DNA from: a virus
Strand: one strand, 5' to 3'
Virus record (IMG/VR): IMGVR_UViG_3300035670_012130
Location: 32,001-96,000 of that record
Length of the DNA: 64,000 bases
A program made the position numbers and the translations under genes. Every line of letters begins with the position of its first letter. The first letter of the stretch is position 1. The notes under the pieces were generated by a model. It was not told the DNA's origin and made no database searches. It saw nothing but the letters and a program-made list of their open reading frames with translations. This document shows, one piece after another, positions 1 to 18,329 of this stretch.

Positions 1-285
1 TGGAACTTTACCTCTAAGTATATCCCACAGCATTATCCAATCACTAATTTTTGCTTTCACTGGATCTTTGAATGCAGCTGGTTGATTTTTTTCAAAGAAA
101 TAATGACCAGACCATGCAAAAGGGTAAACAACAAATGGTGTTAGCAATAAGAACCAATAATATCCAAACTTCAAACAAAAAACAACCCACAAAATAGTCA
201 TGAATTGTCCTAATACATGTAATCTTCTGCAAATCTTATTTTGATGCAGAGTAAGATACATCTCATAATATTCTTTCATATTCAT
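1..285 (-). CDS. DUF962/Mpo1-like small membrane protein, 3' end runs off the window (not in ORF track)
   Basis: Manual translation from ATG 285, which overlaps the stop of the upstream gene (ATGA): MNMKEYYEMYLTLHQNKICRRLHVLGQ...YPFAWSGHYFFEKNQPAAFKDPVKAKISDWIMLWDILRGKVP. The YL..H.N...R.LH and AW.GH.FFEKN.PA motifs are typical of DUF962. Confidence 0.85.
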   Translation of the reverse strand, partial: MNMKEYYEMYLTLHQNKICRRLHVLGQFMTILWVVFCLKFGYYWFLLLTPFVVYPFAWSGHYFFEKNQPAAFKDPVKAKISDWIMLWDILRGKVP

Positions 286-1052
286 ATAGTACAAACTCCT
301 AATTTTTGAACAACTTTGGTAGCACATTCTTGAGCAAATTTAATTGCTAAGTCAATGTCATTAGTTCTTGAAAATTCACATGTCAATGCAGAGATGAATG
401 TATCTCCAGCGCCAGACATATCTTTGCAGTTGACTCTTTCAACTGGAAACATTTTACCTTGAAATTCACATCCTTTATCAGAATGAGTTATTATCAACTT
501 GTTATATAGATTTAAATTATCAATAGTGTGTTTGGTTTTATCGAATTCAACATGGTTTATCTTAATAAAATCACAAGAAGTGCACCATGTTCCTAAAATT
601 TTCTTAGTATCAAGAAAAACATTTTTATTATGATGACTGATTTCCCAAATATGATCTTCTGACAAAAACCCCTTACAATAATCACTTATTATTATAGAAT
701 CGTAATGTACTCCATCATAAAAATTGTCAATAATTTCTTCAATAACTTCAAAATTTAATGCAGAGACTTTTTGTTCTTCATCCACTCTTATCAGGAGACT
801 ATTAGTACGCTCATCTACTAATCTGGTCTTAACAATATTTTCTGGTTGAGTTATAAGAGTTACTTTTGCACCAATAGCTTCAATATTTGCTTTTACATTC
901 AGTGCCATACCACCATTTAATTTTGTTTCAATAGGATTGAATACTGGAGCTGGACCTTCTGGAGCTAATCTAGGTACATGTCCATATGTAAAAACATCAG
1001 TACAAGAATCTCCTATCACTAGAATGTTGATATGATTATATAATTCTTTCAT
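282..1052 (-). CDS. HldE/RfaE kinase-domain-like PfkB sugar kinase (heptose-7-phosphate kinase-like), no adenylyltransferase domain
   Basis: ILVIGDSCTD..YG...RLAPEGPAPV, GGMALNV, IISDYCKGFL and DMSGAGDTF motifs. Confidence 0.85.
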   Translation of the reverse strand: MKELYNHINILVIGDSCTDVFTYGHVPRLAPEGPAPVFNPIETKLNGGMALNVKANIEAIGAKVTLITQPENIVKTRLVDERTNSLLIRVDEEQKVSALNFEVIEEIIDNFYDGVHYDSIIISDYCKGFLSEDHIWEISHHNKNVFLDTKKILGTWCTSCDFIKINHVEFDKTKHTIDNLNLYNKLIITHSDKGCEFQGKMFPVERVNCKDMSGAGDTFISALTCEFSRTNDIDLAIKFAQECATKVVQKLGVCTI

Positions 1053-1558
1053 AATAATAGTGTATTTTTATCTCTTTCAGATAAAATTGGATTATCTGAT
1101 ATCCAATTTATACCTATTTTGGGATCAGACCAATAAACAGATTTTTGATCTTTCACATCAGGATAATCACCATCATAACTCCACTTATAGTGAAAAATAG
1201 CTTTATCACTCAGAACTAAATGGCCATTCAAAAATCCTGGAGGAACAAGTACGCTCAATTTTTCCTTACTATCAGCATCTAAAATAAAATCAGTCCAAGA
1301 TAAATATTCAGAACATTCTTTGTCAAAATTTACAATAACTAATTGAATTTTTCCATATAAACAAGTAATTAATTTCCACGATTTATCAGTATGCAAACCT
1401 CTCAATACATTTTTATTAGAAGTAGCTACCTTGTCATGATTGAAATTCAATGAAGCAGTGTCGCTGTCTTTCCATATGGTAAACAATTCACCACGTTCAT
1501 CAATAAATGAATCTTTGGTAAAAACTGTCACTCCGGAAAGACAATCAACTCTAGCCAT
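1049..1558 (-). CDS. rmlC: dTDP-4-dehydrorhamnose 3,5-epimerase family (cupin)
   Basis: DERG, NVLRGLH, VPPGFLNGH and W.DPKIGINW...NPILSERD motifs. Confidence 0.88.
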   Translation of the reverse strand: MARVDCLSGVTVFTKDSFIDERGELFTIWKDSDTASLNFNHDKVATSNKNVLRGLHTDKSWKLITCLYGKIQLVIVNFDKECSEYLSWTDFILDADSKEKLSVLVPPGFLNGHLVLSDKAIFHYKWSYDGDYPDVKDQKSVYWSDPKIGINWISDNPILSERDKNTLLL

Positions 1559-2720
1559 TTAATACCTCAAGAAGTTTGGTAATTTTTTCTTTTTCAAGCC
1601 CTGGATAATTGCCTATGTACCAAGAAAAATTATGTAAATGTTCAATATTTGGAAAGTTAGAAAAATCATTATAAATAGACTTGAAAAATGGTTGCCTCAT
1701 TTGATTTCCACCACCAGAAAGTCCACGTCTAAATTCAATTCCATTATTTCTAAGCTTTCTTTCAACTTCATTACGTTTTGTAAAATCAGCGTCTTTCAAG
1801 ATTACAATAAAAGCGTAGTTACAATTTCCTTCAGTATTTAAGGCGATATGATACTTTTCAGGATCTAAATTCGAGATAAATATATCAAAATTTTCTCTTC
1901 TTTCTTGATTTTTATTATCTAGTTTTTTGAGCTGTGAAAGTCCAATTACAGCATTAATTTCTGTGCTTCTAAAATTGTGTGCTGGACGTAAGAAAATAAA
2001 GTCAGGATTTAAATCAGGATTGTCCATTGCTATTGAAATCTTCATGGAATCACTAGTCATTTCTCTAGTCATTCCATGTGATCGTAATGCCCTGCAAATT
2101 TGATAAAACTCCCAATTATTAGTAGAAATCATCCCGCCTTCAATTGTGGACATATGGTGAGCAAAATAAAAACTGAAATTACTTGCGAATCCAAAATTAC
2201 CCACTTTACATCCTTGGAAAGTTGTGCCGTGAGATTCGCATACATCTTCAATTAGTAGAATATTTTTTTGTTCACAGATTTCTAAAAGCTCATCTGTAAG
2301 ACCATTGATACCTAACACATGTGTAAGAAAAATAGCTTTAGTATTTTCAGTAATTGCATCTTTCAACTTATCAATATCAAATGACAAATTGGTAAAATTA
2401 ACGTCAACAAAAACTAATTTATGACCAGCAAATAAGACGGAAGAAATGTCTGAAATCCAAGTTAAAGGTGGAACAATAATTTCACCTTCACCAATTAAAT
2501 GTGATATGGCAAGCATTGTTAATTCATTAGCTGATGCTCCTGAATTTACAAATAAATTATATTTTGTTCCAAGCCATTCGCCCCAAGACTTTTCAAATTC
2601 GGCAACCTTAGGTCCATTTGTCAATTTTGGAATTGCGTCTTGAGACAAAAAATCTATTACAGAATTTATATCTTCTTTGTCAATATTATCATTCATCAAT
2701 GGCAAGAAAAATTTATTCAT
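1551..2720 (-). CDS. DegT/DnrJ-fold PLP/PMP enzyme, ColD-type NDP-4-keto-6-deoxyhexose 3-dehydratase
   Basis: VNSGASAN, EDVCESHG, SFYFAHHMSTIEGGM (His at the Schiff-base Lys position) and RSHGMTR. Start placed at 2720, just after the upstream stop. Confidence 0.8.
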   Translation of the reverse strand: MNKFFLPLMNDNIDKEDINSVIDFLSQDAIPKLTNGPKVAEFEKSWGEWLGTKYNLFVNSGASANELTMLAISHLIGEGEIIVPPLTWISDISSVLFAGHKLVFVDVNFTNLSFDIDKLKDAITENTKAIFLTHVLGINGLTDELLEICEQKNILLIEDVCESHGTTFQGCKVGNFGFASNFSFYFAHHMSTIEGGMISTNNWEFYQICRALRSHGMTREMTSDSMKISIAMDNPDLNPDFIFLRPAHNFRSTEINAVIGLSQLKKLDNKNQERRENFDIFISNLDPEKYHIALNTEGNCNYAFIVILKDADFTKRNEVERKLRNNGIEFRRGLSGGGNQMRQPFFKSIYNDFSNFPNIEHLHNFSWYIGNYPGLEKEKITKLLEVLNG

Positions 2721-2721
2721 T

Positions 2722-3258
2722 TTATTTCTCGTTATAAAAATCGCCCCATTCAACTAAAATTGTCGGCCTATTGTCTGTACGCAAATATGCATATTGATAA
2801 GCTTCAAATATTTGATTAGGCTCATCCAATCTAATTATATCTACAAAATCACACATTGCTTTGAAACCACCTGTAAAATCAGCAATATGTTGATGTTGAG
2901 GATGTAATGGTCTTTGAGATCCAATCGATGTTCTTATGATGATTTTAGGCGTGTATCCACCATCAGACATAACTTTGATTTTATCTACATGATTTACAAG
3001 TTGATTAGCAGCAAGTAATAGAAAATTCCAACGAGGATATAGCGAAACTGGAACAGTGCCATTAAGTGCTATTCCCAATGTAATTCCCATTTGCATATCT
3101 TCATTTACAGGCATTTCTAAAAGTTTGCTTTTATCAATACCGCTAAGAGTATTTGTCATTGCAGTACCTGGATATTCAACAGCTTGACCAAGAAACAATG
3201 TGTCTTGTTGAGCACCAAGCCATTCCATAGATCTTTTTAATTCATCGAAATATTTCAT
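2722..3258 (-). CDS. Truncated TPP enzyme beta subunit (transketolase/PDH E1-beta pyrimidine-binding domain only)
   Basis: FLGQAV, EMPVNEDMQMG..LGIAL, FLLLAANQLVN, IIRT.IG....HPQHQH and PTILVE motifs; 178 aa with no C-terminal domain. Confidence 0.8.
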   Translation of the reverse strand: MKYFDELKRSMEWLGAQQDTLFLGQAVEYPGTAMTNTLSGIDKSKLLEMPVNEDMQMGITLGIALNGTVPVSLYPRWNFLLLAANQLVNHVDKIKVMSDGGYTPKIIIRTSIGSQRPLHPQHQHIADFTGGFKAMCDFVDIIRLDEPNQIFEAYQYAYLRTDNRPTILVEWGDFYNEK

Positions 3259-3863
3259 TAAAATTGGATCCTTTTTCCAGCTCCAGCATGTGGATATTTA
3301 GATTGATAACTGTAATAAATAATCTTTTTTTCGTTGCAATTGAATGCCAAAGTGTCAGAATTCCAAACTTTTCTAGTATCTGTGCAAACTGACTTGTTAT
3401 TGTCTTCAACTACAAATGTGATTGGTAAATCATGATTCAAGGCATATTTATAATTTTCAAAAAATGTACCTGTTTCTGAAGCCATATCACCAACAAAACA
3501 CCAAACATGATTTGTTTGATTTTTTCTTTTTATATCAAGTGCGACACCAGTGGCAATTGGGATGCTTCCAGTTACAATAGCTGAAGAATAAATGTTGTAA
3601 TCAGGATAGCAAAGTGTAATTGATTTTCCGCTAACTATATCTGCCATAAGGCGTTCTTGAGGAACGCCTTTGAGCAAACACTGGTAATGAGATCGCCAAG
3701 TGCAAAAAATCCAATCTTCATCTTTGACATTATTGAAAACTTCAATAATTTGCTTTTCATTACCATCGTAAAGATGAACTGGCGACTTGATTACTCCACT
3801 GTTGAATGTTTCAGCAACTTTTGTTTCAAAATCTACGAGTTCTTCGGGCGTATATTTTTTCAT
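3258..3863 (-). CDS. Short TPP enzyme alpha subunit (PDH E1-alpha-like)
   Basis: PVHLYDGNE, WRSHY..LLKG, SAIVTGSIPIATG and GDMA...FVVEDNN TPP-binding motif. Confidence 0.83.
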   Translation of the reverse strand: MKKYTPEELVDFETKVAETFNSGVIKSPVHLYDGNEKQIIEVFNNVKDEDWIFCTWRSHYQCLLKGVPQERLMADIVSGKSITLCYPDYNIYSSAIVTGSIPIATGVALDIKRKNQTNHVWCFVGDMASETGTFFENYKYALNHDLPITFVVEDNNKSVCTDTRKVWNSDTLAFNCNEKKIIYYSYQSKYPHAGAGKRIQF

Positions 3864-4819
3864 TTATTTAAGTAATTCTCTTGATACCATGCAACAGTTT
3901 TTTCAATACCTTCTTGAAAGGTAAATTGAGGCTGAAAACCCAATTCAGTTGTAATTCTTTCAGTGCTAACCATTCTAAAAGGAATGGTTGTAGGTTTAGA
4001 ATTATCCCAAACAATTTCAGGTGTTTTACCAGTAGCTAATAAAATCGAGTCTAAAATTTCACCAATTGTGATTGTTTTGCCCATTCCAACATTGTATGGT
4101 CTCATTGGAGTGCCTTTTTCAAGTACCAACAAAGCTGCATTAACAACATCTTCAACATACAAGAAATCTCTTACAACATCAGGACTACCCCAAGCTGTAA
4201 ATGGGTTTTCATCTGTAAGCACTCTGTTGATTAAAGCTGGAACAACATGACAGGTTTTGGTATCAAAATTATCATAAGGTCCAAAAATTGCTGTACCTCT
4301 AGTGAGCATAATTTCTAAGTCAGAAAATTTTGAAACATGCTCCATAAGCTTTTCACGGTATCTACGCATCCATCCATAGCCGTAATATGCTTTGTAAGGC
4401 TCATCGTCCCAATATTCTTCTTCAGTGATTGGATAACGTCTGTCTGGATATCCTGTTGAACTATTTAAGTCAAGGAATCTTTTTACGCCAGTCTTATTAC
4501 AAGCATCAAGCACATTTCCCAAAACATTAATGTTTTGAATAGAAATTTGTATATCAGTAGGGACAGTAGAAGGATGAGCAATATTTCCTCCACTGTGAAT
4601 GACATAATCAGCACCATCAACTAACTTGATACAATCATCCAAGTTTGTCAAATCACAAAATGGCATGACAGTAATATTTTCAACTTTTGTTTGCAAAGGT
4701 TTGTGATGAATGTGAGTAAAAACATTTGCACCACGCTTCACAAGCCCCTCAATATAATTGCTGCCTAAAAATCCACTACCACCAGTTACAACTACTTTTT
4801 TACCTTCAAAAAAACTCAT
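3860..4819 (-). CDS. Extended SDR, GDP-fucose synthase/ColC-like nucleotide-sugar reductase/epimerase
   Basis: TGGSGFLG, GPYDNF....HVVPALI, WG...VRDFLYVED; YGWMR at the YxxxK site. Confidence 0.8.
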   Translation of the reverse strand: MSFFEGKKVVVTGGSGFLGSNYIEGLVKRGANVFTHIHHKPLQTKVENITVMPFCDLTNLDDCIKLVDGADYVIHSGGNIAHPSTVPTDIQISIQNINVLGNVLDACNKTGVKRFLDLNSSTGYPDRRYPITEEEYWDDEPYKAYYGYGWMRRYREKLMEHVSKFSDLEIMLTRGTAIFGPYDNFDTKTCHVVPALINRVLTDENPFTAWGSPDVVRDFLYVEDVVNAALLVLEKGTPMRPYNVGMGKTITIGEILDSILLATGKTPEIVWDNSKPTTIPFRMVSTERITTELGFQPQFTFQEGIEKTVAWYQENYLNK

Positions 4820-4828
4820 TTTTTAACC

Positions 4829-5800
4829 TCAATGATTTACAAATACATTATAGCGCTGATCGATAGAATTTTTATTATTCTTAAACCATTCAGTTACTAT
4901 TTGAATTCCATCCGATAAAGATGTGCGAGACTTGATACCATAACTTTCTGCTCTTTCAGTAGACATGATTCTGATAGCATCTCCATTTGGTTTATCTGAC
5001 ATCCATTTGACTTCTAAATTTTTTCCTGAGTGTTTCACAACCATTTCAACCACCTCTTTGATTGTAAATCCTTTGCCAGATCCAAGATTAATAGGCTCAG
5101 TGACTCGTTTTTCAACACATTGAATCATAGCACTAGCTACGTCATCAGCAAAGATAAAATCTCTAATTGGAGTTCCATCTCCCCAAACTTCCAAAACATC
5201 ATTTTCTTGAGCTTTTCTAATTAGTGAAGGAACAACCATGGAATTAACTGGGTTGAAATTATCGTATTTTCCAAAAATATTAGCTGGTCTTACGATAGAA
5301 ATATTATTAGATCCATATTGAATTGCATATGCTTCAGCTTGCAATTCTCCTATTCTTTTAGCCCAGCCAGCAAACTTATCGTTTGGTGATGGAAAAGTTT
5401 TCCAAACGTCATCTTCGTAAAAAACATCTGCTGGAGAATACACACCAACCGAACTTGTATACAAATACCACTTTACATTAGTTTTTCTAGCAGCTTCCAT
5501 CATATTTGTGTTAAATTGAAGCATTGGAACCATAAAATCTGCTGGTTGCTCTGCGCAAGCTTTGGGTGATCCTTTGACTCCGATAATATTAAAAACATAA
5601 TCTTTATCTTTGCAAATTTCTTCACAAACATCCAAATATCTCAAGTCTCCTTTGGTGTACTTCACTTCAGGCTCAAGATCTGCAGGTTTATGCAAATCAG
5701 CAATTTCAACTTCTGCCCCAAGACTTAAGAGCTTTGAAACTAAAGCTCTTCCTACCATACCTGCTCCGCCAGTCACTAAAACTTTTTGGTTATTAAACAT
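4829..5800 (-). CDS. Extended SDR, GDP-fucose synthase-like paralog
   Basis: TGGAGMVG, RPANIFG.YDNF, VWGDGTPIRDFIF, KPNG; AGWAK lacks the catalytic Tyr. Confidence 0.8.
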   Translation of the reverse strand: MFNNQKVLVTGGAGMVGRALVSKLLSLGAEVEIADLHKPADLEPEVKYTKGDLRYLDVCEEICKDKDYVFNIIGVKGSPKACAEQPADFMVPMLQFNTNMMEAARKTNVKWYLYTSSVGVYSPADVFYEDDVWKTFPSPNDKFAGWAKRIGELQAEAYAIQYGSNNISIVRPANIFGKYDNFNPVNSMVVPSLIRKAQENDVLEVWGDGTPIRDFIFADDVASAMIQCVEKRVTEPINLGSGKGFTIKEVVEMVVKHSGKNLEVKWMSDKPNGDAIRIMSTERAESYGIKSRTSLSDGIQIVTEWFKNNKNSIDQRYNVFVNH

Positions 5801-5808
5801 TTTATTTC

Positions 5809-6747
5809 CTATAAATTGGTGAAATCTTTATTTTTGAAATTCGAAATCATTTTGTATGCGCTTAGAAGTTCTTGTATTCCAGCATCTAATGAATAATCGC
5901 AATACCATCCTGTTTTTTCAATCTTTTCATTTGAAACAATATAATTACGTTTATCAAAATCTTCTTTAAACTGTTCCTCAATGATAACTAAATTAGGAAC
6001 GTACTCTTTGACTTTTTGAGCGAGTTGAAGCTTTGACATATTTGCAGAAGTAAGGCCTACATTGAAAGCATTGTTGTTGCAAGTTTCATAATTTTCTATC
6101 AAATGAAGAAAAGCTTTTGCCACATCCCTGACATGAACATAGTTTCTCAAAAAATGTGATTCAAAAAGAACTAAAAATTCATCAGTGAAAGCTCTGTAAA
6201 CAAAGTCATTGACAAGTAGATCCATTCTTTGTCTGTAGGAAACTCCAAATACTGTAGCAAGTCTTAATGAAATTCCATTACCTGATTCTAAAACACGCTT
6301 TTCAGCATCGCATTTTGTTTTTGCATAAAGAGAAAGAGGATTGAATGGACTTTCTTCTGTGATGATTGTTTCAGAACTTCCATATTGAGAATTTGTATTA
6401 GGAACTAACAATTTCTGACTTGGCTGAATTATCTCAAGGATGTTTTTAATTTGTTGATAATTTACAGCAACTGTTAGATCTGGATCTTTTTTACACGCTG
6501 GCATTCCTACAATAGCAGCTAAAGGAATAACGATGTCATGAGTTTCTACCAGACCACTAAGAAGTTTGGTATCTCGCACATCGCCAACAATAAGATTGAA
6601 ATTTTTATTATGACAAAACTGAGTTAAGGATAACTGTTTGTATGTCAAGTTGTCTAAAACAGTAACTGAATAGTCTTTAGACAGTAAAACTTCAGTAAGA
6701 ATAGAACCAAGGTATCCAGCTCCACCTGTTATTAATACTTTTTTCAT
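5809..6747 (-). CDS. NAD-dependent nucleotide-sugar epimerase/dehydratase (extended SDR)
   Basis: TGGAGYLGS, LAAIVG.PAC, YAKTK and RLATVFG.S.R.R.DLLVN motifs. Confidence 0.85.
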   Translation of the reverse strand: MKKVLITGGAGYLGSILTEVLLSKDYSVTVLDNLTYKQLSLTQFCHNKNFNLIVGDVRDTKLLSGLVETHDIVIPLAAIVGMPACKKDPDLTVAVNYQQIKNILEIIQPSQKLLVPNTNSQYGSSETIITEESPFNPLSLYAKTKCDAEKRVLESGNGISLRLATVFGVSYRQRMDLLVNDFVYRAFTDEFLVLFESHFLRNYVHVRDVAKAFLHLIENYETCNNNAFNVGLTSANMSKLQLAQKVKEYVPNLVIIEEQFKEDFDKRNYIVSNEKIEKTGWYCDYSLDAGIQELLSAYKMISNFKNKDFTNL

Positions 6748-6755
6748 ATAAGATA

Positions 6756-6804
6756 ATTATACCAACGATTGATTTGCGATATAGTTTTATTTTGATGGTA
6801 TAAA
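6756..6804. promoter_or_regulatory. Divergent pair of -10-like boxes directly before two start codons
   Basis: Minus strand: TGG-TATAAT, 8 nt before ATG 6747. Plus strand: TGG-TATAAA (6799-6804), 6 nt before ATG 6811. Confidence 0.6.
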
Positions 6805-6810
6805 TTAGAT

Positions 6811-7599
6811 ATGAATGTGATAGTAAATTACAATTGGGGTGATAAACATACATTTTCTTTGTCCCACAAACTATATCTTGAAGGCCTTGCAAAGATCAAT
6901 TGTTATAAACTTATTATAGTTTATGATATGAGTGAAGAGACGATTGATAAACTAAAGACTATTTACGACCATGTTGAAGTCATACCAAAACCAGATTCAC
7001 ATTTCACTTCATTTTACACAATTTACAAAACTGTAGAAAAATATTGCTCTCATTGTGATTTGTTTTTATATACTGATTCACATGATGTTATTTTTCAATC
7101 AGATCCTTTTGAATATCTTTCTAAATTTGATGAAGAAATTTTCTTAACTTCTCCAGGTTTTAAAGTAAAGGATCAATGGCCAGACCGAAATTGGCATGAA
7201 TATTTTAATAAATCAACTAGCAAAAAAGTAGATTTCTGGGAAGATAAAGTTTTGAATGGTGGAATAACTGCTGGAAAAGTTCAAGCAATACTCAATTTCT
7301 ATGCATTTGCAACTGCTAATTTAAACAGAAATGGTTGTCATATTGTAGATCAAACCGTATATTTATATTTTTATCATCTGATGAAAGACAGAGGTAATGT
7401 TAGAATTTTTGATACCAGAAATGATAATTTTGTGTATCACTGTCAAAATGAGCATTTTTTTGATCGCCCAGAAAATCCCAATGTTATAAACGGAAAAATA
7501 TACACTGAGTCTGGTGAGTTATATTGTATTTGGCATCAATGGGATGATATTGGATACTCGGCTAATTTAGATGAGAAAGGTAATGTTTACATTAAATGA
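6811..7599 (+). CDS. Putative GT-A-fold glycosyltransferase (PLOD-GT-like D-x-x-D-V-x-F-Q-x-DPF family), paralog 1
   Basis: FLYTDSHDVIFQSDPF, VLNGGITAG, DQ and WHQWD motifs; sugar-cluster context. Confidence 0.6.
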   Translation: MNVIVNYNWGDKHTFSLSHKLYLEGLAKINCYKLIIVYDMSEETIDKLKTIYDHVEVIPKPDSHFTSFYTIYKTVEKYCSHCDLFLYTDSHDVIFQSDPFEYLSKFDEEIFLTSPGFKVKDQWPDRNWHEYFNKSTSKKVDFWEDKVLNGGITAGKVQAILNFYAFATANLNRNGCHIVDQTVYLYFYHLMKDRGNVRIFDTRNDNFVYHCQNEHFFDRPENPNVINGKIYTESGELYCIWHQWDDIGYSANLDEKGNVYIK

Positions 7600-8309
7600 A
7601 TATAATATTTGCGGTTATAAGAAATCCAGAATTTGTGATAAATAATAAATATACCTCATTCATTAATTCACTTAAAAATTTGTCTGAGACATCTAAAATT
7701 GTTTTAATAAATGCAAGTTCAAAAGAAATTAAACTAGATCGTGCTAATATTGAAGTTTTGAATACTACTGCAATGGCTTCAGATTTAAACATTTATGGAG
7801 CAATTTCAGGATACTTGAATCAGTACCAAAATGACGAAAATGATTATGTTGCGATCTGTAACGTAGAAAATATATTGTTTACTCGTGATCCTTTATTGTT
7901 TCTAAAGCATTTTGATAAAGATCTATATTTTTATAGTTTGAGCCATATCAATAACGAAAGTACTCAAATAAAATCAGATTATGAGAATTTTGTAAAAACC
8001 TGTAATTTTTATATGGGAAATGATTTCGATTCTTTATCAATTGGTACTCATTTCTTTGGCGGTAAATTATCAGCTATGAAAGCATTGTTATTAACATTGT
8101 TTTTGAATGTCAACAGAAACTCAGCCAATACAATTACCTCTCAAGCTGTTTTGTCTTATGTTCACAAGCACTTTTATAATTTATTCAAAGTTCAAATGTT
8201 TACAAATCAATTTTGCATGCTTGTAGATGATAAAAGCAAGGCTGAGTCTATTTTAGACGATGAAGAATTATCTAAAAAACAATATGCAGTAATATACTTT
8301 ACCAGCTAA
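7596..8309 (+). CDS. Degenerate paralog of the GT-A-like protein (probable pseudo-glycosyltransferase)
   Basis: CNVENILFTRDPL aligns with TDSHDVIFQSDPF, HFFGGK with GGITAGK, and SQAV with DQTV; HQWD is absent. Confidence 0.5.
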   Translation: MNIIFAVIRNPEFVINNKYTSFINSLKNLSETSKIVLINASSKEIKLDRANIEVLNTTAMASDLNIYGAISGYLNQYQNDENDYVAICNVENILFTRDPLLFLKHFDKDLYFYSLSHINNESTQIKSDYENFVKTCNFYMGNDFDSLSIGTHFFGGKLSAMKALLLTLFLNVNRNSANTITSQAVLSYVHKHFYNLFKVQMFTNQFCMLVDDKSKAESILDDEELSKKQYAVIYFTS

Positions 8310-8700
8310 TTTCCCAATCTTTGAAATCAGCTGCTAAACAATCAATTTTATAATCTTTTCTACCGCCAACGACTTCTTGAATTTTGTTTTTGGCGGTATT
8401 TCTTATTCCATTTAATCCATGTGTCAATTCGAGATTATTCCCATCTTTAATGCCTTTGCGATAATTGGTTTCATTATGCCAAATATGTAAATTCATCTGA
8501 GAAAGAACTACTATAGCTCTAATTACTTGAGCATCAACTATTGCGTTATTTTCGTCTAAATGTGCTTGTATATCATGAACTATAGATGCTATTTCTTCAG
8601 CATATTCACTTTTATGATCTGTAATAAAAACTTCCTTAAGTTGAACTATAGAAAGTCTGTCAATTAATTCCGAAAGAGTTGGTAAATATTTGCGATTCAT
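8299..8700 (-). CDS. DUF6165/DUF4254-like small helical protein
   Basis: LSELIDRLSIVQLK...NLHIWHNE...LNGIRNTAKNKI pattern. Confidence 0.6.
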   Translation of the reverse strand: MNRKYLPTLSELIDRLSIVQLKEVFITDHKSEYAEEIASIVHDIQAHLDENNAIVDAQVIRAIVVLSQMNLHIWHNETNYRKGIKDGNNLELTHGLNGIRNTAKNKIQEVVGGRKDYKIDCLAADFKDWEISW

Positions 8701-8707
8701 ATCTTGA

Positions 8708-8735
8708 ATTATACCTTGCTAAATGCACGTATAAT
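8708..8735. promoter_or_regulatory. Divergent pair of TATAAT boxes before starts 8700 (-) and 8742 (+)
   Basis: Minus-strand TATAAT at 8713-8708 is 7 nt from its ATG; plus-strand TATAAT at 8730-8735 is 6 nt from its ATG. Confidence 0.65.
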
Positions 8736-8741
8736 ATTTTT

Positions 8742-9695
8742 ATGAAAATTGTATACATAACAGGTTGTTTAGGATTTATTGGAAGACATGTGGCTCTATC
8801 TTGTCTGGAAAAGGGGTGGTATGTATATGGAATTGACAAATGTACTTACGCATCTGACATTAATTTATTGAGTGAATTTAATAAATATAAAAATTTCAAC
8901 TTTCAGCAAATTGATATCTGTTCTTTAGATAGGTTGGTAGATTGTGATTATTTCATAAACGTAGCAGCAGAAACGCATGTAGATAATTCTATTAGAAAAA
9001 GTGATGATTTTATTCATTCAAATATTAATGGAGTTTACAATATATTAGAATTACTTAAAAACTACAAAAAAGAAGGCTATGTAACACCTACATTTTTACA
9101 TTTTAGCACTGATGAAGTTTATGGTGATATTACTGATGGAGCGCATATAGAAACTGATTTATTAAGGCCTTCTAATCCTTATTCAGCTACCAAAGCAGCA
9201 GCTGATCAACTCATCACTGCTTGGTCTAGAACTTATGATTTGCCATATGTTATTGTTAGACCCACTAATAATTATGGATGCGGTCAATATGTTGAAAAGC
9301 TAATTCCCAAAGCCTGTAAATTTTTATCATTAGGAAGGAAAATTCCATTACACAACAATGGAACACCAACCCGAAATTGGCTGCATGCTAAAGATACAGC
9401 TAAAGCAGTAATGACTATAGTTGAATCAGATGTAAAAAATGAAATTTATAATATTGCTGGTGGATTTGAACAATCTAACCTTGATACTGTTCACAAAATT
9501 ATCAAAGAGTTTTACCCAGGCAGTGTCTTTGAAACAGAAGATTACATAAATTTCAATGTTCATAGACCAGGACAAGATGTAAGATATGCTCTTGATGATT
9601 CGAAGATAAGAGCATTGGGTTGGAAGCCTGAATGTGTGTTTGATGAAGAAATTAAAGAAATAGTAAAATACTATAAAGAAAATTTTGTATGGTAA
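8742..9695 (+). CDS. rmlB: dTDP-glucose 4,6-dehydratase
   Basis: TGCLGFIG, AAETHVDNS, STDEVYG, PSNPYSATKA, NNYG..Q..EKLIP and RPGQD.RY motifs; start moved to MKIVYITG. Confidence 0.9.
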   Translation: MKIVYITGCLGFIGRHVALSCLEKGWYVYGIDKCTYASDINLLSEFNKYKNFNFQQIDICSLDRLVDCDYFINVAAETHVDNSIRKSDDFIHSNINGVYNILELLKNYKKEGYVTPTFLHFSTDEVYGDITDGAHIETDLLRPSNPYSATKAAADQLITAWSRTYDLPYVIVRPTNNYGCGQYVEKLIPKACKFLSLGRKIPLHNNGTPTRNWLHAKDTAKAVMTIVESDVKNEIYNIAGGFEQSNLDTVHKIIKEFYPGSVFETEDYINFNVHRPGQDVRYALDDSKIRALGWKPECVFDEEIKEIVKYYKENFVW

Positions 9696-9702
9696 TTATC
9701 AA

Positions 9703-10719
9703 ATGAAAGTAAATGATTACATTGCTGAAAGATTGTATCAAGAGGGTATTAGACACGTTTTTGGCATAATGGGTGGTGGAGCTGCTGGTATAAATGATGG
9801 TTTTATCAGAAGCAAAATTGAATACATTTGTTTTCATCATGAACAAGGTGCTTCGAATGCAGCTTTGGCTTATAGCAAGTCCAAAAATCAGATTTCAGTT
9901 GTTAACCCTACCACTGGATGCGGAGGATTAAATTGTGTAACTTCTCTAGTGTCAGCCTTTCAAGATAGTGTGCCTTTATTATTTATATCAGGTAATTATC
10001 GACTTCAAGAGACTACCAGATATCTTAATAAAACTAAAAACATAAGCTTGAGAAAATTTGGTTTACAAGAGCATGATATTATTGAACATGTCAAGTATGC
10101 TACAAAGTTTTTTGCATTTATAGAAGACAAGAACGATGTTCCAATGGTCCTTGAAAAAGCAATTCAAAAATGTGTTAATGACAGACCTGGACCTTGCTGG
10201 ATTGATATTCCTTCTGATATTCAAACCCAAGAAATCGATAATAGTTTTTTATTTCCAAATATTGAAACTGAAAAAAAAATTTTAAACAAAACTTATATTG
10301 AAGAATTTTTCAGTATTTTAAATAATAGCAAGAGACCATTGATTTTGTTAGGTTCAGGGATAAATATTTCTGATTGTAAACAAGAAGTAATTGATTTTAT
10401 TGAATTGAATCAAATTCCAACAGTCAGTACATTTTCTGCAAAAAATATTTTGCCTTTTGATCACAAATTAAGTATTGGCACTATTGGAATAAAAGGAAGT
10501 AGAGCTGGAAATTTTGCTTTACAAAATTGTGATCTGTTAATTGCTTTAGGTTGTTCATTAAATTCATCACATACGGGATATGATAAAAAACTATTCTCAC
10601 CAAAATCCAAAAAAATCTTGGTAAATATTGATGAGAATGATTATTTGAAAAATAATGTAGATTTTGATCTATTTATAAAAAAAGACTTAAAAGGCTTCTT
10701 AAATGACATCAAGAATTGA
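9703..10719 (+). CDS. Acetolactate-synthase-like (YerE-like) TPP enzyme, N-terminal and central domains
   Basis: VFGIMGGG, HHEQGAS.AA, TTGCGGLN, QDSVPLLFISG, RPGPCWIDIP and GSRAGNFALQNCDLL motifs. Confidence 0.85.
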   Translation: MKVNDYIAERLYQEGIRHVFGIMGGGAAGINDGFIRSKIEYICFHHEQGASNAALAYSKSKNQISVVNPTTGCGGLNCVTSLVSAFQDSVPLLFISGNYRLQETTRYLNKTKNISLRKFGLQEHDIIEHVKYATKFFAFIEDKNDVPMVLEKAIQKCVNDRPGPCWIDIPSDIQTQEIDNSFLFPNIETEKKILNKTYIEEFFSILNNSKRPLILLGSGINISDCKQEVIDFIELNQIPTVSTFSAKNILPFDHKLSIGTIGIKGSRAGNFALQNCDLLIALGCSLNSSHTGYDKKLFSPKSKKILVNIDENDYLKNNVDFDLFIKKDLKGFLNDIKN

Positions 10720-11458
10720 CTGGATTGAAAAGTGTAATTATTGGAAAGAAAAATGGCCTTTGTATACAGATTGTTTCATTGATGACAATGATGGAATAAA
10801 TTTATATACAATAATTGAGACTATAAATAATTGCTCTAACACCAAAGACATTTTGATGACTGACGCTGGTTCTGCAAATTATGTTTGTTGCCAAAATTTA
10901 AAATTAAAAAAAGATCAAAAATTTATTTTTCCTGCAGCTCAAGGTGATATGGGATTTTGTATACCTGCTTGTGTTGGAGCCCAATTGGCAAATCCTGACC
11001 ATAATATAATTGCAATTATTGGAGATGGCAGTTTTCAAACAAATATTCAGGAACTTGCTTCTATAAAAGCAATAAAATCTAATTCTAAAATTGTAGTTTT
11101 GAACAATGAAGGCTATCTAAGTATTAGAAACACACAAAGTAAATTTTTTAATGGAAATGTCTATGGTGAATCTAAAAGTACAGGCTTATGGTTTCCTGAT
11201 CTTAAAAAAATTGCTACAGCATATGAATTCGAATATTTCAGAATCGAAAGTAATAAAGATTTAGTTGATATTTTTGAAAACGAACTTCACAGTGAAAAAC
11301 CAATTATTTTTGACATCAAATGCAAATATTCTCAAGATGTAATACCAACTTCAGCTTTAAAAATAGATAAAAATTCAGGTAAAAAAATTCAATGTGGCTT
11401 AGATGACATGTATCCTTTCATGAGCGATGAAGAGCATTCAAAAGAGATGTTATATTGA
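10703..11458 (+). CDS. Acetolactate-synthase-like TPP enzyme, C-terminal TPP-binding domain (split partner)
   Basis: DAGSA, QGDMGF..PA..GA and GDGSFQTNIQEL...LNNEGYLSIR.TQ motifs. Confidence 0.85.
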   Translation: MTSRIDWIEKCNYWKEKWPLYTDCFIDDNDGINLYTIIETINNCSNTKDILMTDAGSANYVCCQNLKLKKDQKFIFPAAQGDMGFCIPACVGAQLANPDHNIIAIIGDGSFQTNIQELASIKAIKSNSKIVVLNNEGYLSIRNTQSKFFNGNVYGESKSTGLWFPDLKKIATAYEFEYFRIESNKDLVDIFENELHSEKPIIFDIKCKYSQDVIPTSALKIDKNSGKKIQCGLDDMYPFMSDEEHSKEMLY

Positions 11459-12249
11459 TGAATATACTAATTACTGGTGGAGAAGGCTATGTTGCCTCAA
11501 ACTTATATAAGAACCTTGAATCAAGTTATAATTTAACTACAATTTCAAGAAAAGATTTAGATTTGACTATTTCTTCAGAGGTAAATGCTTTTTTTGAAAA
11601 TAAATTTTTCGACATTGTTTTTCATTGTGCTGTATGTGGAGGTAGCAGGTTAAAATTAGATAGTTATTATGAAATGGATAATAATTTGAAAATGTATTAT
11701 AATCTACATCAATTAAAAGATAAGCATTTCAAAAAATTTATCACATTTGGTTCAGGTGCAGAAACACACTCATCTCATACTCCTTATGGATTGAGCAAAC
11801 ATGTAATAGCTCAATCCATCTCTGAAACTGAGAACTTTTATAATCTTGTAATTTTTGCTCTTTTTGATTCAAGTGAATGGGAATCTAGATTTATAAAAGC
11901 AAATATTTTACGTTACATAAATAAAGATTCTATAATTATTCACCAAGATAAATACATGGATTTTTTTTACATGAATGATTTTATAAAAGTAATAAAATAC
12001 TATATTGAAAATCAAAGCTGCCCAAAATCAATTAATTTTTCATACGGTGAATCAACAAAACTTTCAGACATTGCAAAAAAAATCAACAATCTAAATAATT
12101 ATAAAGTTGATATTTGTATAGAAAATCAAGAAATTGCACCAAGCTATTGTGGAGATTATAATTTGGATGCATTGAATATTAATTTCGATGGCTTATACAA
12201 TGGCATTGAAAAAGTTTTTGATGAAATAAATTCTGCAAATTACAAATAA
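11458..12249 (+). CDS. Extended SDR nucleotide-sugar reductase (YerF/Abe-like candidate)
   Basis: TGGEGYVA, FGSGAE and YGLSK motifs; ATG overlaps the upstream TGA. Confidence 0.75.
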   Translation: MNILITGGEGYVASNLYKNLESSYNLTTISRKDLDLTISSEVNAFFENKFFDIVFHCAVCGGSRLKLDSYYEMDNNLKMYYNLHQLKDKHFKKFITFGSGAETHSSHTPYGLSKHVIAQSISETENFYNLVIFALFDSSEWESRFIKANILRYINKDSIIIHQDKYMDFFYMNDFIKVIKYYIENQSCPKSINFSYGESTKLSDIAKKINNLNNYKVDICIENQEIAPSYCGDYNLDALNINFDGLYNGIEKVFDEINSANYK

Positions 12250-12259
12250 TAAAAATAAG

Positions 12260-12265
12260 TATAAT
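12260..12265 (+). promoter_or_regulatory. -10 box 6 nt before ATG (leaderless-type)
   Basis: TATAAT-gtaaat-ATG at 12272. Confidence 0.6.
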
Positions 12266-12271
12266 GTAAAT

Positions 12272-12928
12272 ATGTCTAGATTTGATACAGATTTAATTTT
12301 CAAGATTGATGAAAAATGGTTTTGGCGTAAAGATGATTACAATTTGAAGACCTACAATGGCCTTTCAAGTGAGACAGATCTACTCAAAGTTGTTCAACCC
12401 TATCTCAAAGGTAAAAAAGTCGTAGTTCAAGCTGGTGGAAATTGTGGTATGCAAGTTGTTAAATTTGCAGAATTTTTTGATACAGTTTACACTTTTGAAC
12501 CTGATCCTATTAATTTTCATTGTTTAGTTAACAATTTGCCATATGATAATGTAATAAAATTCCAGTGTTGTCTGGGCGATTCTCATAAAATGGTTTCAAT
12601 GACTACTTTGCCCAATGAAATAGGTGGTTTTTATGTCAATGAAAATTTGGGTACAACTCCTACACTTAGAGTTGATGATTTGAATTTAACTTACTGTGAT
12701 TTTTTACAGCTTGATGTTGAGGGTTATCAACTTTATGCACTTAAAGGTGCTATAAACACAATCAAGAAATTCCATCCAGTTATTAGTGTTGAATTTGATT
12801 GGGCTTTTAGATATAATCACAGCACATCTGATATTAGAAATTTTTTAGCAAGCTTAGGCTACGAAAAAGTCGAGTCTTACACAACTGATCATATTTATAT
12901 TTATAAAAATCTTTCATTTAGTTTATGA
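12272..12928 (+). CDS. FkbM-family SAM-dependent methyltransferase
   Basis: VVVQAGGNCG, FEPDPINF and RVDDL...CDFLQLDVEGY...ALKGA..TI.K..PVI.VE motifs. Confidence 0.85.
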   Translation: MSRFDTDLIFKIDEKWFWRKDDYNLKTYNGLSSETDLLKVVQPYLKGKKVVVQAGGNCGMQVVKFAEFFDTVYTFEPDPINFHCLVNNLPYDNVIKFQCCLGDSHKMVSMTTLPNEIGGFYVNENLGTTPTLRVDDLNLTYCDFLQLDVEGYQLYALKGAINTIKKFHPVISVEFDWAFRYNHSTSDIRNFLASLGYEKVESYTTDHIYIYKNLSFSL

Positions 12929-13821
12929 AAATATTAATTACAGGTGCTGGTGGTTTTTTAGGATCAAATATTTGCAATTTGCTATCTAAAAAGCATGAAA
13001 TTTTAGCTATATCTAGAAATTTTGAAAAACTAAATAGAGAAAGTAATATAATCTGTCATAAATTAGATATGGCAGATTATAATCTTTTAAAAGAACAAGT
13101 GCAAAATTTTATTCCAGAAGTAGTAATTCATTGCGCATGGATGGGCGGAAATTCTTCTAGAGACATTAATGAACTGTGGCAAGCAGATAACATCATTTAC
13201 AGCAATGAACTTCTTAAGTTTTGCTCATCTCTAGGGATTAGACATTTTATAGGATTTGGATCTTCTGCTGAGTATGGAAATCATTTATGCAAACTAAATG
13301 AACTCACAGTTTGTAAACCTACAACCATGTACGGTATTACTAAGAATTCATTTAGACACATAGCAGAGAATTATTGTGAATCTAATAATATCAATTTCAG
13401 TTGGGTAAGACCAGTTTTTACTTATGGTCCAAGAGATGTTGAGACAAGACTAATTCCTAAAGCTATTATATCTTTTTTGAAAAACCAAGATCTTGTATTG
13501 AATAAATGTTCAGCCGTAGTAGATTATTTATTTGTTGAAGATTTTTGTAAAGCCATACAATGCATTGTTGAACAAGAAATAATTGGAGATTTTACCATAT
13601 CTTCTGATGATGAAATTAATATAAAAAAATTAGTTGAAATGATTTATGAAAAAATTAATTCTAAATCTAATTTAATTTTTGATGAAAGTAAACCTGATTA
13701 CAGCCATCAATATGTTTGTGGTTCATCAGAAAAATTAAAATCTTTGTCTGATTGGCGCCCGCTGATTTCTTTAGAGAATGGTTTAGATAAAACCATTTCC
13801 TACTTTGAAAAGTTCGTATAA
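12925..13821 (+). CDS. Extended SDR (CDP-abequose/paratose synthase-like reductase)
   Basis: TGAGGFLGS, HCAW, GSSAEYG, YGITK and DYLFVEDF motifs. Confidence 0.8.
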   Translation: MKILITGAGGFLGSNICNLLSKKHEILAISRNFEKLNRESNIICHKLDMADYNLLKEQVQNFIPEVVIHCAWMGGNSSRDINELWQADNIIYSNELLKFCSSLGIRHFIGFGSSAEYGNHLCKLNELTVCKPTTMYGITKNSFRHIAENYCESNNINFSWVRPVFTYGPRDVETRLIPKAIISFLKNQDLVLNKCSAVVDYLFVEDFCKAIQCIVEQEIIGDFTISSDDEINIKKLVEMIYEKINSKSNLIFDESKPDYSHQYVCGSSEKLKSLSDWRPLISLENGLDKTISYFEKFV

Positions 13822-13822
13822 T
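13817..13822 (+). promoter_or_regulatory. -10 box 6 nt before ATG 13829
   Basis: cgTATAATatttttATGaa is an identical 19-mer to 8728-8746. Confidence 0.65.
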
Positions 13823-13828
13823 ATTTTT

Positions 13829-14638
13829 ATGAATAATCTTTTGCTAAATTTTCTAGATGGTAATCGCATACTCGAATCAATTGATGCAGATATATACCTT
13901 GCATCATTATCAAAACACAAAACATTTAAAAAACTTGTATGTGTTTACAATGTTGATTCCGAGCAAATCAAAAAACTTGAGAAGTATTATGATTATGTAA
14001 TACCAGTTGAAAAAGGATTAACACCAATAAACTTTTGCTATTTAGCTTATTATAATTGGCTTTGTGAAAATGGCAAAGATTTCAAGTATGTAATGCATTG
14101 CGATATGCGTGATGTTGTAATTCAAAAAGATCCATTTGAATTTATGGAAAATCATCCAGATAAAGAACTATTTTTAGTTTGTGAAGGAATGAAAATTAAA
14201 GAGAATGATTGCAACAAAATGTGGCATGACTGGGTTTTAAATACAATAATTTACAATAAAGAAACCTACGATGATTCTTATGTTTTGAATGGAGGAACAT
14301 ATGGTGGGAAAACAAATGCTTTTCTAAATTACTGTACATTGATACTCACAGCAATGAATAGAAAGTTCCATTATATTATTCCAGATCAAGCTATGTTGGG
14401 TTATTTATATAGACAATTAAGTCAAAATCCAAATGTTATGCTAACTCATCCTATGACAGATACTTTTTGTGCAACTGGCGAGGCAATAAAAAGAGATAAC
14501 GTTGATGTTTATTTTGACGGTACAAATGTCTGCAATCAATTAGGGGAAAAGTATTGTTTATTCCATCAATGGGATAGAACTGAGGTGGCTGAACTGTTAA
14601 GAAATAAGTTTAAAAATACTTTGTCATTCAGCCTTTAA
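13829..14638 (+). CDS. Putative GT-A-fold glycosyltransferase, paralog 3
   Basis: HCDMRDVVIQKDPF, VLNGGTYGG, DQAM and FHQWDR motifs; clear paralog of 6811-7599. Confidence 0.62.
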   Translation: MNNLLLNFLDGNRILESIDADIYLASLSKHKTFKKLVCVYNVDSEQIKKLEKYYDYVIPVEKGLTPINFCYLAYYNWLCENGKDFKYVMHCDMRDVVIQKDPFEFMENHPDKELFLVCEGMKIKENDCNKMWHDWVLNTIIYNKETYDDSYVLNGGTYGGKTNAFLNYCTLILTAMNRKFHYIIPDQAMLGYLYRQLSQNPNVMLTHPMTDTFCATGEAIKRDNVDVYFDGTNVCNQLGEKYCLFHQWDRTEVAELLRNKFKNTLSFSL

Positions 14639-15222
14639 CCTAATTCTCGTTCTATATCAATATCAAGATCTGCAGCTGTTTCAGGTTTAGCTTCATTTTT
14701 AGTAGCTAAAATAAGTTGAATAGTTTCAAACTCTTTCATACTCAAGTTAGAAAATTCATCTTTACTCATAGAAACTAAACCTCGTGTCATATAGTCTATT
14801 TCAACAACTAGTGGTGGCACGGGGTAAGTTTCTGTATCATTTGGGTTGTAATATTTTTTTGTCGCAACATAATAAAAGTTAGCTTCATCAGCATTCAAAT
14901 ATAGATAATTCTGATATTCAACCCACAACTTTTCTACAATCTGATAGTCTAGCTTTTCTAATAATGAGATTTCGAATTCAGGCATATAATCTATGTTAGT
15001 ACTTGTGTCATACGCTCTTAATATTGCTAAATTTAAAATCTCTCTTTTTTCAAATTCAGAATTTTGATAAACTATATTATCTTTTTTTCTAAATGATTTG
15101 GCATCTATCAACAAGCCTTCTTTCCAAGTTATTTCTCTAACTATAAACTTTACAGTATCTATCGTGATGATATGAGTTCTGTTTGATTTAATTTTATCGT
15201 AAAATTCAATAAATTCTTTCAT
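14635..15222 (-). CDS. Hypothetical protein, possible tail assembly chaperone
   Basis: Follows a tube-like gene; F.VREITW N-terminal motif and acidic composition. Confidence 0.4.
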   Translation of the reverse strand: MKEFIEFYDKIKSNRTHIITIDTVKFIVREITWKEGLLIDAKSFRKKDNIVYQNSEFEKREILNLAILRAYDTSTNIDYMPEFEISLLEKLDYQIVEKLWVEYQNYLYLNADEANFYYVATKKYYNPNDTETYPVPPLVVEIDYMTRGLVSMSKDEFSNLSMKEFETIQLILATKNEAKPETAADLDIDIERELG

Positions 15223-16463: not shown

Positions 16464-16850
16464 TTATTTTCCGCCTGTCATTTCCAACCATTTTTTTGAT
16501 AAGGCTTTCACTAATTCGTATCTAATCATATTTACATTATGGGGATCTGGATAATAAGTTTCTACATTTTCCCCTTCTATAATCTTAATTACAGAAAAGA
16601 AATTTGTAATGATGTTTTTGCAAAGCACTGATGTTCGCAATAAAGGATTACCAGTTACAGAATTGATAATTGTAGCTTCTTCTATAATATTCGACATATC
16701 GGAAAAGTTTCTTCCTTTGACATCACAAGAAATCAAACATTTTCCGTTCGGATCAATCTTATAACAAAGTATTTCACCATCTTCGTTTTTAATGATGTTA
16801 CAATTTAATTTTAATTCAAATCTTTTTCCAGCGTCTACAAAAATACTCAT
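16464..16850 (-). CDS. Hypothetical protein (tail module)
   Basis: 128-aa ORF tightly coupled between two tube-like genes. Confidence 0.6.
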   Translation of the reverse strand: MSIFVDAGKRFELKLNCNIIKNEDGEILCYKIDPNGKCLISCDVKGRNFSDMSNIIEEATIINSVTGNPLLRTSVLCKNIITNFFSVIKIIEGENVETYYPDPHNVNMIRYELVKALSKKWLEMTGGK

Positions 16851-18322: not shown

Positions 18323-18329
18323 ATAAAAC

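Follow-up and report, generated by a model that had tools for sequence, protein, structure and literature searches.

Enzymes that use thiamine diphosphate to install carbon branches on nucleotide sugars are known from bacterial lipopolysaccharide (LPS) and antibiotic pathways. YerE adds an acetyl-derived branch from pyruvate onto CDP-3,6-dideoxy-4-keto-glucose to furnish yersiniose, ErwE and MMAR_2332 use 4-hydroxy-2-oxo acids to furnish erwiniose and caryophyllose, and E1-like alphaKADH2 enzymes put acetyl branches on antibiotic sugars; a 2025 review names viruses among the unexplored sources of thiamine sugar-branching enzymes (PMC12247030). Phage glycosyltransferases are likewise known, as are a few phage sugar clusters. 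In cluster O mycobacteriophages, an O-methyltransferase gene is followed by three tandem glycosyltransferase genes, and the encoded enzymes are reported, by way of a citing source, to modify capsid and tail tube proteins (PMC11600133, citing Freeman 2023). Here, we describe an island of sugar genes in a 64,000-nucleotide stretch of viral DNA (the window), which comprises bases 32001-96000 of one 106,125-bp viral contig (IMG/VR record IMGVR_UViG_3300035670_012130). Homology and gene context point to a probable function as a hypervariable nucleotide-sugar tailoring island, set within the virion (late) gene block, that would most likely serve the glycosylation of virion proteins.

The contig is that of a phage, because a large terminase (TerL), a portal, a head-maturation protease and a major capsid protein (MCP) are encoded 5' of the window, as identified by PHROG matches. 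The MCP matches phrog_2522 (E 3.6e-68) and is 48% identical to the MCP of Bacillus phage G, the nearest cultured relative; 156 IMG/VR stretches encode relatives of this MCP, many of them 95-100% identical and on contigs of up to 358 kb. Judged by these sequences, the contig belongs to a common environmental jumbo-phage lineage related to phage G. An initial annotation of the window had placed a ~14.4-kb cluster for branched, 3,6-dideoxy, O-methylated sugars at 282-14638, and this overall interpretation is partly supported. Every gene class that it listed was found at its coordinates by family and structure searches, and the right end stands at 14638, 4 nt inside the convergent gene t195. The left end does not; the island starts with the gene right behind the MCP, ~6.1 kb 5' of the window, and totals ~20.8 kb. 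Open reading frames (ORFs) are tightly packed over 282-14638, and the GC content is even over the island and its flanks, at about 0.28-0.35.

More than 20 independent IMG/VR contigs show the arrangement of capsid, island and tail genes, with a shared order of the MCP, sugar genes and a gene for a GT-A-fold glycosyltransferase (GT), converging on t195-t413-t128-t498-t816. Two further islands could be traced to both ends (17.7 kb in G001 and 22.4 kb in G004). Behind MCPs that are 96-100% identical, the islands range from about 1 to 22 kb and their cassettes differ: one relative (L027) is nearly without an island, another (L016) retains the GT-A gene only, and some related islands lack DdhC. Cassettes absent from the present phage include HAD-nucleotidyltransferase fusions, B12-binding radical SAM enzymes, a NeuB-family synthase, a dehydroquinate-synthase (DHQS)-like cyclase, extra methyltransferases and a LAGLIDADG endonuclease. 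The tail-side neighbours diverge far more than the MCP, with t413 being 31-78% identical among relatives; over t195-t816 (window 14635-20780), identities are 25-89% versus 72-100% for the MCP (nearest 96-100%; L027, L043, L086, L089). Because t195-t816 diverge beyond the MCP, the hypervariable zone is taken to extend from the sugar island through the neighbouring genes on the tail side. These comparisons suggest that cassettes are swapped between phages of near-identical MCP, and that the island behaves like a phage counterpart of an O-antigen serotype locus. In one relative with a 100% identical MCP (L004), a LAGLIDADG homing-endonuclease-like gene sits right behind the MCP, at the left border of the island (10904-12115); such a gene may promote the exchange of cassettes.

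The genes of the island and its convergent neighbours are given below, in coordinates of the window unless otherwise stated (SDR, short-chain dehydrogenase/reductase; NDP, nucleoside diphosphate; PMP, pyridoxamine phosphate; ALS, acetolactate synthase; AF2, AlphaFold2; TM, transmembrane).

Upstream of the window, in order: E1/DdhC 3-dehydrase (L001:11877-13190; NCBIfam RfbH above cut-off), 595-aa thiamine enzyme, two HpcH/HpaI aldolase-like proteins, LdpA-like protein (two 4Fe-4S motifs), 127-aa HAD-like protein
1..327, minus strand: Mpo1-like (DUF962) small membrane protein (Pfam PF06127, E 7e-29; TM scan)
282..1052, minus strand: PfkB sugar kinase, nearest the HldE heptose-7-phosphate kinase domain (Pfam PfkB, E 3e-13)
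1049..1558, minus strand: RmlC-type NDP-4-keto-6-deoxysugar 3,5-epimerase, cupin fold (Pfam PF00908, E 6e-34)
1551..2753, minus strand: ColD-type PMP-dependent NDP-4-keto-6-deoxysugar 3-dehydratase (PDB ColD 2gms/3gr9)
2722..3258, minus strand: miniature E1 beta-like subunit, 178 aa (Pfam PF02779; Glu motif)
3258..3863, minus strand: miniature E1 alpha-like subunit, 201 aa (Pfam PF00676, E 2e-18)
3860..4819, minus strand: extended SDR, nearest GDP-fucose synthase (Fcl) (Pfam Epimerase, E 4e-42; NF047922 128 bits, under cut-off)
4829..5800, minus strand: extended SDR, second Fcl-like copy (Pfam Epimerase, E 4e-43; NF047922 156 bits, under cut-off)
5809..6747, minus strand: extended SDR, GalE / 4,6-dehydratase-like (Pfam Epimerase, E 9e-34; 88-93% identical in relatives)
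6811..7599, plus strand: GT-A-fold GT paralog 1, 262 aa (paralogy to 13805-14638; weak GT_PLOD match)
7596..8309, plus strand: GT-A-fold GT paralog 2, 237 aa, more divergent (paralogy to 13805-14638)
8299..8700, minus strand: 133-aa protein (83-94% identical in L012, L032, L086, L088)
8679..9695, plus strand: RmlB-type NDP-glucose 4,6-dehydratase (TIGR01181 best match, 301 bits, under cut-off 365)
9685..10719, plus strand: split ALS/YerE-like thiamine enzyme, N and middle domains (Pfam TPP_enzyme_N, _M)
10703..11458, plus strand: split thiamine enzyme, C-terminal thiamine-binding domain (Pfam TPP_enzyme_C, E 3e-31; GDG...NN motif)
11455..12249, plus strand: short SDR (Pfam Epimerase, E 4e-16)
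12272..12928, plus strand: FkbM-family methyltransferase (Pfam PF05050, E 4.5e-13; TIGR01444 above cut-off)
12925..13821, plus strand: extended SDR, dehydratase/reductase-like (Pfam Epimerase, E 2e-38)
13805..14638, plus strand: GT-A-fold GT, right end of the island (AF2 model, Foldseek)
14635..16463, minus strand: convergent neighbours t195 and t413 (t413 model: duplicated tail-tube fold)

Three thiamine systems are encoded in the island, where the initial annotation had counted two: a split ALS-like pair and a miniature E1 alpha/beta pair in the window, and a full-length YerE/JanthE-like enzyme upstream of it. The characterized YerE-like enzyme JanthE joins 2-oxo acids to ketones (PMC12188165); the upstream 595-aa enzyme scores 501 bits to JanthE (PDB 8rph) versus 257 bits to the best acetohydroxyacid synthase (AHAS), possesses the Pfam N, M and C domains and a GDG motif, and is encoded immediately beside the E1/DdhC gene. 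The split pair together carries the N, M and C domains of the ALS-type architecture with a GDG...NN motif, the ATG of the second ORF lying 17 nt before the stop of the first. In the present phage and in two others (L017 and L020), a 4,6-dehydratase gene lies directly 5' of this pair, and the two overlapping ORFs are kept at 49-60% identity in the latter two. We considered a frameshift artefact and rejected it on this conservation; since the split is conserved in two other phages, the pair represents a real two-subunit form.

The miniature E1 pair departs from full-length E1 architecture, in which the alpha domain spans ~300 aa and the beta subunit bears a transketolase_C domain. The alpha-like subunit possesses a GDM-X26-NN thiamine diphosphate motif and covers positions 6-179 of the 300-position PF00676 profile; the beta-like subunit possesses the Pyr domain with the activating Glu (NEDMQMG), and the C-terminal transketolase_C domain is absent. 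These lengths are kept in relatives, including the 178 aa of beta, and the best 120 of 7,979 environmental matches to the alpha-like subunit are 199-210 aa long. The pair would resemble alphaKADH2 enzymes in its predicted working, yet in a truncated form and not as a plain member. A second, longer E1 alpha-like type, 276-277 aa and 26-29% identical to the miniature form, was observed in related islands (L088:10965-11798, L018:15044-15874), so that the lineage holds at least four kinds of thiamine enzymes.

We consider it likely, from their sequences and setting, that the thiamine enzymes act on keto-sugars, and both homology and gene context give good support to this predicted role in sugar branching. 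The corresponding proposal of the initial annotation, that thiamine enzymes branch NDP-4-keto sugars, fits YerE-like and alphaKADH2 chemistry, and partners for pyruvate dehydrogenase (PDH) or branched-chain amino acid (ILV) enzymes were not found. Searches of the contig and four relatives, three of which are 88-100% complete, returned neither E2 (PF00198) nor ketol-acid reductoisomerase (KARI; IlvC, PF01450), as had been noted for the window, while the ALS small subunit was not among the families searched; thiamine-domain genes in these five records are confined to the islands. The earlier remark that both branching chemistries would meet at one locus needs amendment: the E1-like pair is truncated, the ALS-like pair in the window is only marginally nearer to JanthE than to AHAS, and the clear YerE-like enzyme lies outside 282-14638.

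Compared with the yersiniose, erwiniose and caryophyllose LPS pathways, the island shares a 4,6-dehydratase, an E1-type 3-dehydrase, an adjacent YerE-like carboligase and subsequent reductases, and its aldolases are candidates for producing the 4-hydroxy-2-oxo acids that serve ErwE and MMAR_2332 as donors. It differs in being viral, in possessing an RmlB-type and not a CDP-type dehydratase, in that no DdhA nucleotidyltransferase, DdhD/E3 or Wzx/Wzy-type assembly genes were seen, and in encoding a second, split ALS-like enzyme. With the alphaKADH2 enzymes (aldgamycin, kibdelomycin KbDH and avilamycin type), the island shares a two-subunit E1-like enzyme without E2/E3 among NDP-deoxysugar genes, here beside a 3-dehydratase gene; in contrast to these enzymes, the subunits are miniature (201 and 178 aa), without the C-terminal part of alpha and the C-terminal domain of beta, and stand in a viral setting.

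Two enzymes of the DegT fold would provide two independent 3-deoxygenation routes in one island, one of E1/DdhC type and the other of ColD type. The upstream enzyme passes the NCBIfam RfbH equivalog model (440.9 bits versus a cut-off of 423) and aligns over its full length to Yersinia E1 (3bcx, 321 bits), with the AHH and CxC...CxxC [2Fe-2S] motifs kept. For the enzyme in the window (1551-2753), the best PDB match is ColD 2gms (E 1e-52). His replaces the Schiff-base Lys (AHH versus SHH in ColD), a position fixed by the H188N mutant entry 3b8x, and the PDB alignment reveals a DegT fold without the Fe-S Cys cluster; the aligned catalytic His and the best match agree with its earlier designation as ColD-type. 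The colitose pathway (ColD with ColC) offers a parallel in that two Fcl/ColC-like SDRs share the cassette of this PMP enzyme, which is of ColD type and has His for Lys. The cassette differs in that neither Gmd nor ManC was recognized, and its further genes encode a putative thiamine branching enzyme, a cupin of RmlC type and a heptose-kinase-like protein; its product would therefore differ from plain colitose. In L017, the order of DdhC, methyltransferase, RmlB-like, split ALS-like, HpcH, LdpA-like, HAD and SDR genes reads like one pathway, which appears to be interrupted in the present phage by the ColD/mini-E1 cassette.

An E3-type (DdhD) reductase was not seen in the island, and the LdpA-like Fe-S protein was considered as a substitute. 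This candidate was rejected: its bacterial homologs (32-42% identity) never lie beside DdhC, adjoining instead HpcH aldolases or general sugar genes, and the relative G004 possesses DdhC without LdpA. Adjacent LdpA-like and HpcH-type aldolase genes are also found in Omnitrophota and Bdellovibrionales metagenome-assembled genomes (L090:10001-11573, L092:9404-11012), which suggests that the two proteins work together in something other than the circadian role behind the LdpA name.

The remaining tailoring genes fall around these enzymes. Six SDRs are encoded when the RmlB-type dehydratase is included and five without it. For the dehydratase, the best PDB match is 2hun (232 bits) and the top PDB matches are all dTDP-glucose 4,6-dehydratases. 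The SDR at 3860-4819 is a candidate epimerase/4-reductase. The short SDR at 11455-12249 comes after the thiamine enzyme in every full island, with the thiamine enzyme-SDR-GT order kept in G001 and G004, and is a candidate side-chain or 4-keto reductase with a YerF-like role. The minus-strand cassette starts in the present phage with the SDR at 5809-6747 and ends with the Mpo1-like gene, which crosses the window start and adjoins PfkB in 16 related loci; the 133-aa protein, the atlas relatives of which are viral and without names, accompanies this cassette in relatives. PfkB scores 119 bits against NCBIfam rfaE_dom_I (cut-off 345), and the RmlC-type epimerase scores 94 bits against TIGR01221, also under the cut-off.

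The three GT-like genes listed by the initial annotation proved paralogous, and one of them has a confident GT-A model. Relative to 13805-14638, the product of 6811-7599 is 30% identical (E 7e-31) and that of 7596-8309 is 25% identical (E 5e-8); Pfam hints for all three are sub-threshold only. The AF2 model of 13805-14638 (pLDDT 89.9) returned GT6/GT8 retaining GT-A enzymes as all of its top Foldseek matches (E about 1e-9, TM-score about 0.5). D100 and D103, which follow the strand at 95-99, are near-invariant, forming a DxxD motif and not the textbook DXD. The sequence family of this protein is ~95% viral, without names or Pfam domains, and its gene, which anchors the right end of the island, is so well conserved that minimal islands still retain it; in L016, it is the sole gene between the MCP and t195. 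A TM scan found no TM segments in the GT paralogs; among island proteins, only the Mpo1-like protein has TM-like segments. The FkbM methyltransferase (12905-12928) and the last GT-A enzyme (14612-14638) end nearly alike, in KNLSFSL and KNTLSFSL, and the GT family consensus likewise ends in KNTLxFSI; no other island protein of the present phage bears this peptide, which could be a docking or targeting tag.

On the tail side, the earlier reading that the cluster converges on the tail module holds for the convergence, while tail identity of the nearest genes amounts to a fold-level match of t413 only. The AF2 model of t413 (pLDDT 63) matches T5 pb6 and p140 in Foldseek (E 3e-8), together with a weak Pfam match to Baseplate_Tube_p140. 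PHROGs and Pfam searches gave no family match for the ten genes directly 3' of the island, and tblastn of one of these against 50,697 phage records returned no match; a head-tail adaptor (Mu gp36 / phrog_195) and a baseplate hub (phrog_196) follow farther downstream. It is correct that the island adjoins virion genes on both sides, the capsid side and the tail side. Elsewhere on the contig, the head-maturation protease domain forms the N-terminal part of a 1,378-aa protein (L001:3416-7552), the other ~1,100 residues of which have no family match. A 3,461-aa ORF at window 39420-49805 lies between several ORFs of 950-1,570 aa; five of these large flanking ORFs have no Pfam match and only weak PHROG matches (baseplate hub for 49841-52723).

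Taken together, a model for the island can be proposed, in which all steps upstream of the branching acceptors, by two routes, and the finishing enzymes are predicted to be encoded. The NDP-hexoses would most likely be supplied by the host. Host-made NDP-sugars are the probable start because no nucleotidyltransferase is encoded: NTP_transferase was absent from the contig, G001, G003, G004 and G005, of which G001 is 89% complete and possesses a similar island. A nucleotidyltransferase is present in the island of G002, and HAD-NTP-transferase fusions occur in related islands. The RmlB-type dehydratase would then furnish 4-keto-6-deoxy intermediates, C3 of which could be deoxygenated by the Fe-S/PMP enzyme of E1 (DdhC) type or by the ColD-type enzyme, the latter without need of a reductase. 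The three thiamine diphosphate carboligases would add carbon branches to the 4-keto-3,6-dideoxy sugars, for which longer donors, 4-hydroxy-2-oxo acids, may come from the two HpcH-type aldolases encoded nearby. After epimerization, ketoreduction and O-methylation, the three soluble GT-A paralogs would pass the sugars to a cytoplasmic acceptor, most likely capsid and/or tail-tube proteins.

As for this acceptor, the initial annotation had named virion proteins, phage DNA or the host surface. A virion protein is the best guess and has about an even chance, because the island lies in the structural block between the capsid and tail-tube-fold genes, because the transferases are soluble and of an almost exclusively viral family, and because cluster O mycobacteriophages set a precedent. 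An unlikely alternative is that the island remodels the host surface, its sugars being placed on LPS, capsule, S-layer or teichoic-acid precursors so as to block superinfection or the sticking of progeny to debris. The large 'LPS gene clusters' of the lytic cyanophage P-SSM2 have been interpreted in this manner (PMC1079782), YerE-like enzymes normally serve LPS sugars (PMC12247030), and a small Mpo1-like membrane protein is encoded within one cassette. However, no flippase, polymerase, polyprenyl-phosphate transferase or other membrane machinery was found in the island, which stands inside the structural block and not among early or lysogeny genes, and the transferase family is ~95% viral. The phage DNA as acceptor, glycosylated against restriction as in T4 and other phages, is disfavoured to the point of being very improbable. 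Phage glycosyltransferases often hypermodify DNA (PMC12619734) and the transferases here are soluble, but the ThyA-family dNMP hydroxymethylase (PF00303) is absent from the contig and from relatives of 88-100% completeness, the island belongs to the structural and not the nucleotide-metabolism module, and the fold matches GT6/GT8 and not the T4 DNA glucosyltransferases.

Only slightly more credible than DNA, and still quite unlikely, is a soluble or small-molecule product, such as unusual NDP-sugars or a glycosylated metabolite, that would disturb the metabolism or defences of the host. The other known E1-like (alphaKADH2) branching enzymes belong to antibiotic sugar pathways, and the DHQS-like sugar-phosphate cyclase and B12 radical SAM enzyme of related islands are typical of natural-product pathways; on the other side, the GT-A gene is the one gene retained in minimal islands, and no polyketide synthase, nonribosomal peptide synthetase or similar aglycone-forming gene was seen among the island ORFs examined. 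Least credible of all is that the assembly has joined a bacterial polysaccharide locus to phage DNA as a chimera, or that the thiamine enzymes represent auxiliary metabolic genes of the ordinary PDH/ALS kind, although bacterial O-antigen loci have a similar gene content and the subunits are automatically named as pyruvate dehydrogenase E1. The MCP-island-tail synteny extends over different metagenomes and includes 358-kb and 169-kb contigs, and with so many independent viral contigs sharing the layout a chimera is excluded, which settles the synteny check proposed in the initial annotation; the uniform GC content agrees. Auxiliary metabolism is countered by the missing E2 and KARI, and by an E1 pair without the domains that dock E2.

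Several points weigh against virion glycosylation by branched sugars as set out above. The soluble GT-A enzymes could act on lipid-linked or other host acceptors, and the t413 model is of low confidence in places. In the PDB search, the split ALS-like pair is barely nearer to JanthE than to AHAS (152.7 versus 143.5 bits). Classical E1/DdhC works on CDP-sugars, while the 4,6-dehydratase here is of RmlB type, and no E3-type reductase was seen. The contig is also ~14% complete (CheckV), so that missing partners may lie elsewhere. A further step, that the island is a serotype-like locus by which phages of the same capsid display different rare branched, deoxygenated and methylated virion sugars through exchangeable cassettes, including virus-specific miniature thiamine enzymes, is put forward tentatively, at somewhat less than even chance.

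Relative to known phage systems, virion glycosylation in mycobacteriophages (Freeman et al. 2023, as cited in PMC11600133 and PMC12619734) shares with the island, so far as the citing papers relate it, an O-methyltransferase and tandem GT genes. The island, as a candidate system of this kind, differs in adding a predicted ~20-gene donor-sugar pathway and in being hypervariable. The P-SSM2 clusters (PMC1079782) differ in lineage and position, the island lying between capsid and tail genes, and in that the island adds branched-chain and 3,6-dideoxy chemistry and has another proposed target. No prior description of such an island was found in the literature searched; the 'moraphage' paper (PMC12619734) concerns a different lineage.

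The locus reveals three kinds of thiamine enzymes together with two predicted 3-deoxygenation routes in one virus, and an exchange like that of an O-antigen locus among phages with near-identical capsids. For biocatalytic tertiary-alcohol synthesis, the split ALS-like enzyme and the miniature E1 pair offer compact candidates. If the glycans coat the virion, they would constitute a hidden layer of phage surface diversity that bears on adsorption, recognition by host defences and therapeutic use. If the serotype-like reading is true, natural diversifying selection would act on the virion glycan and not on the tail fibre alone.

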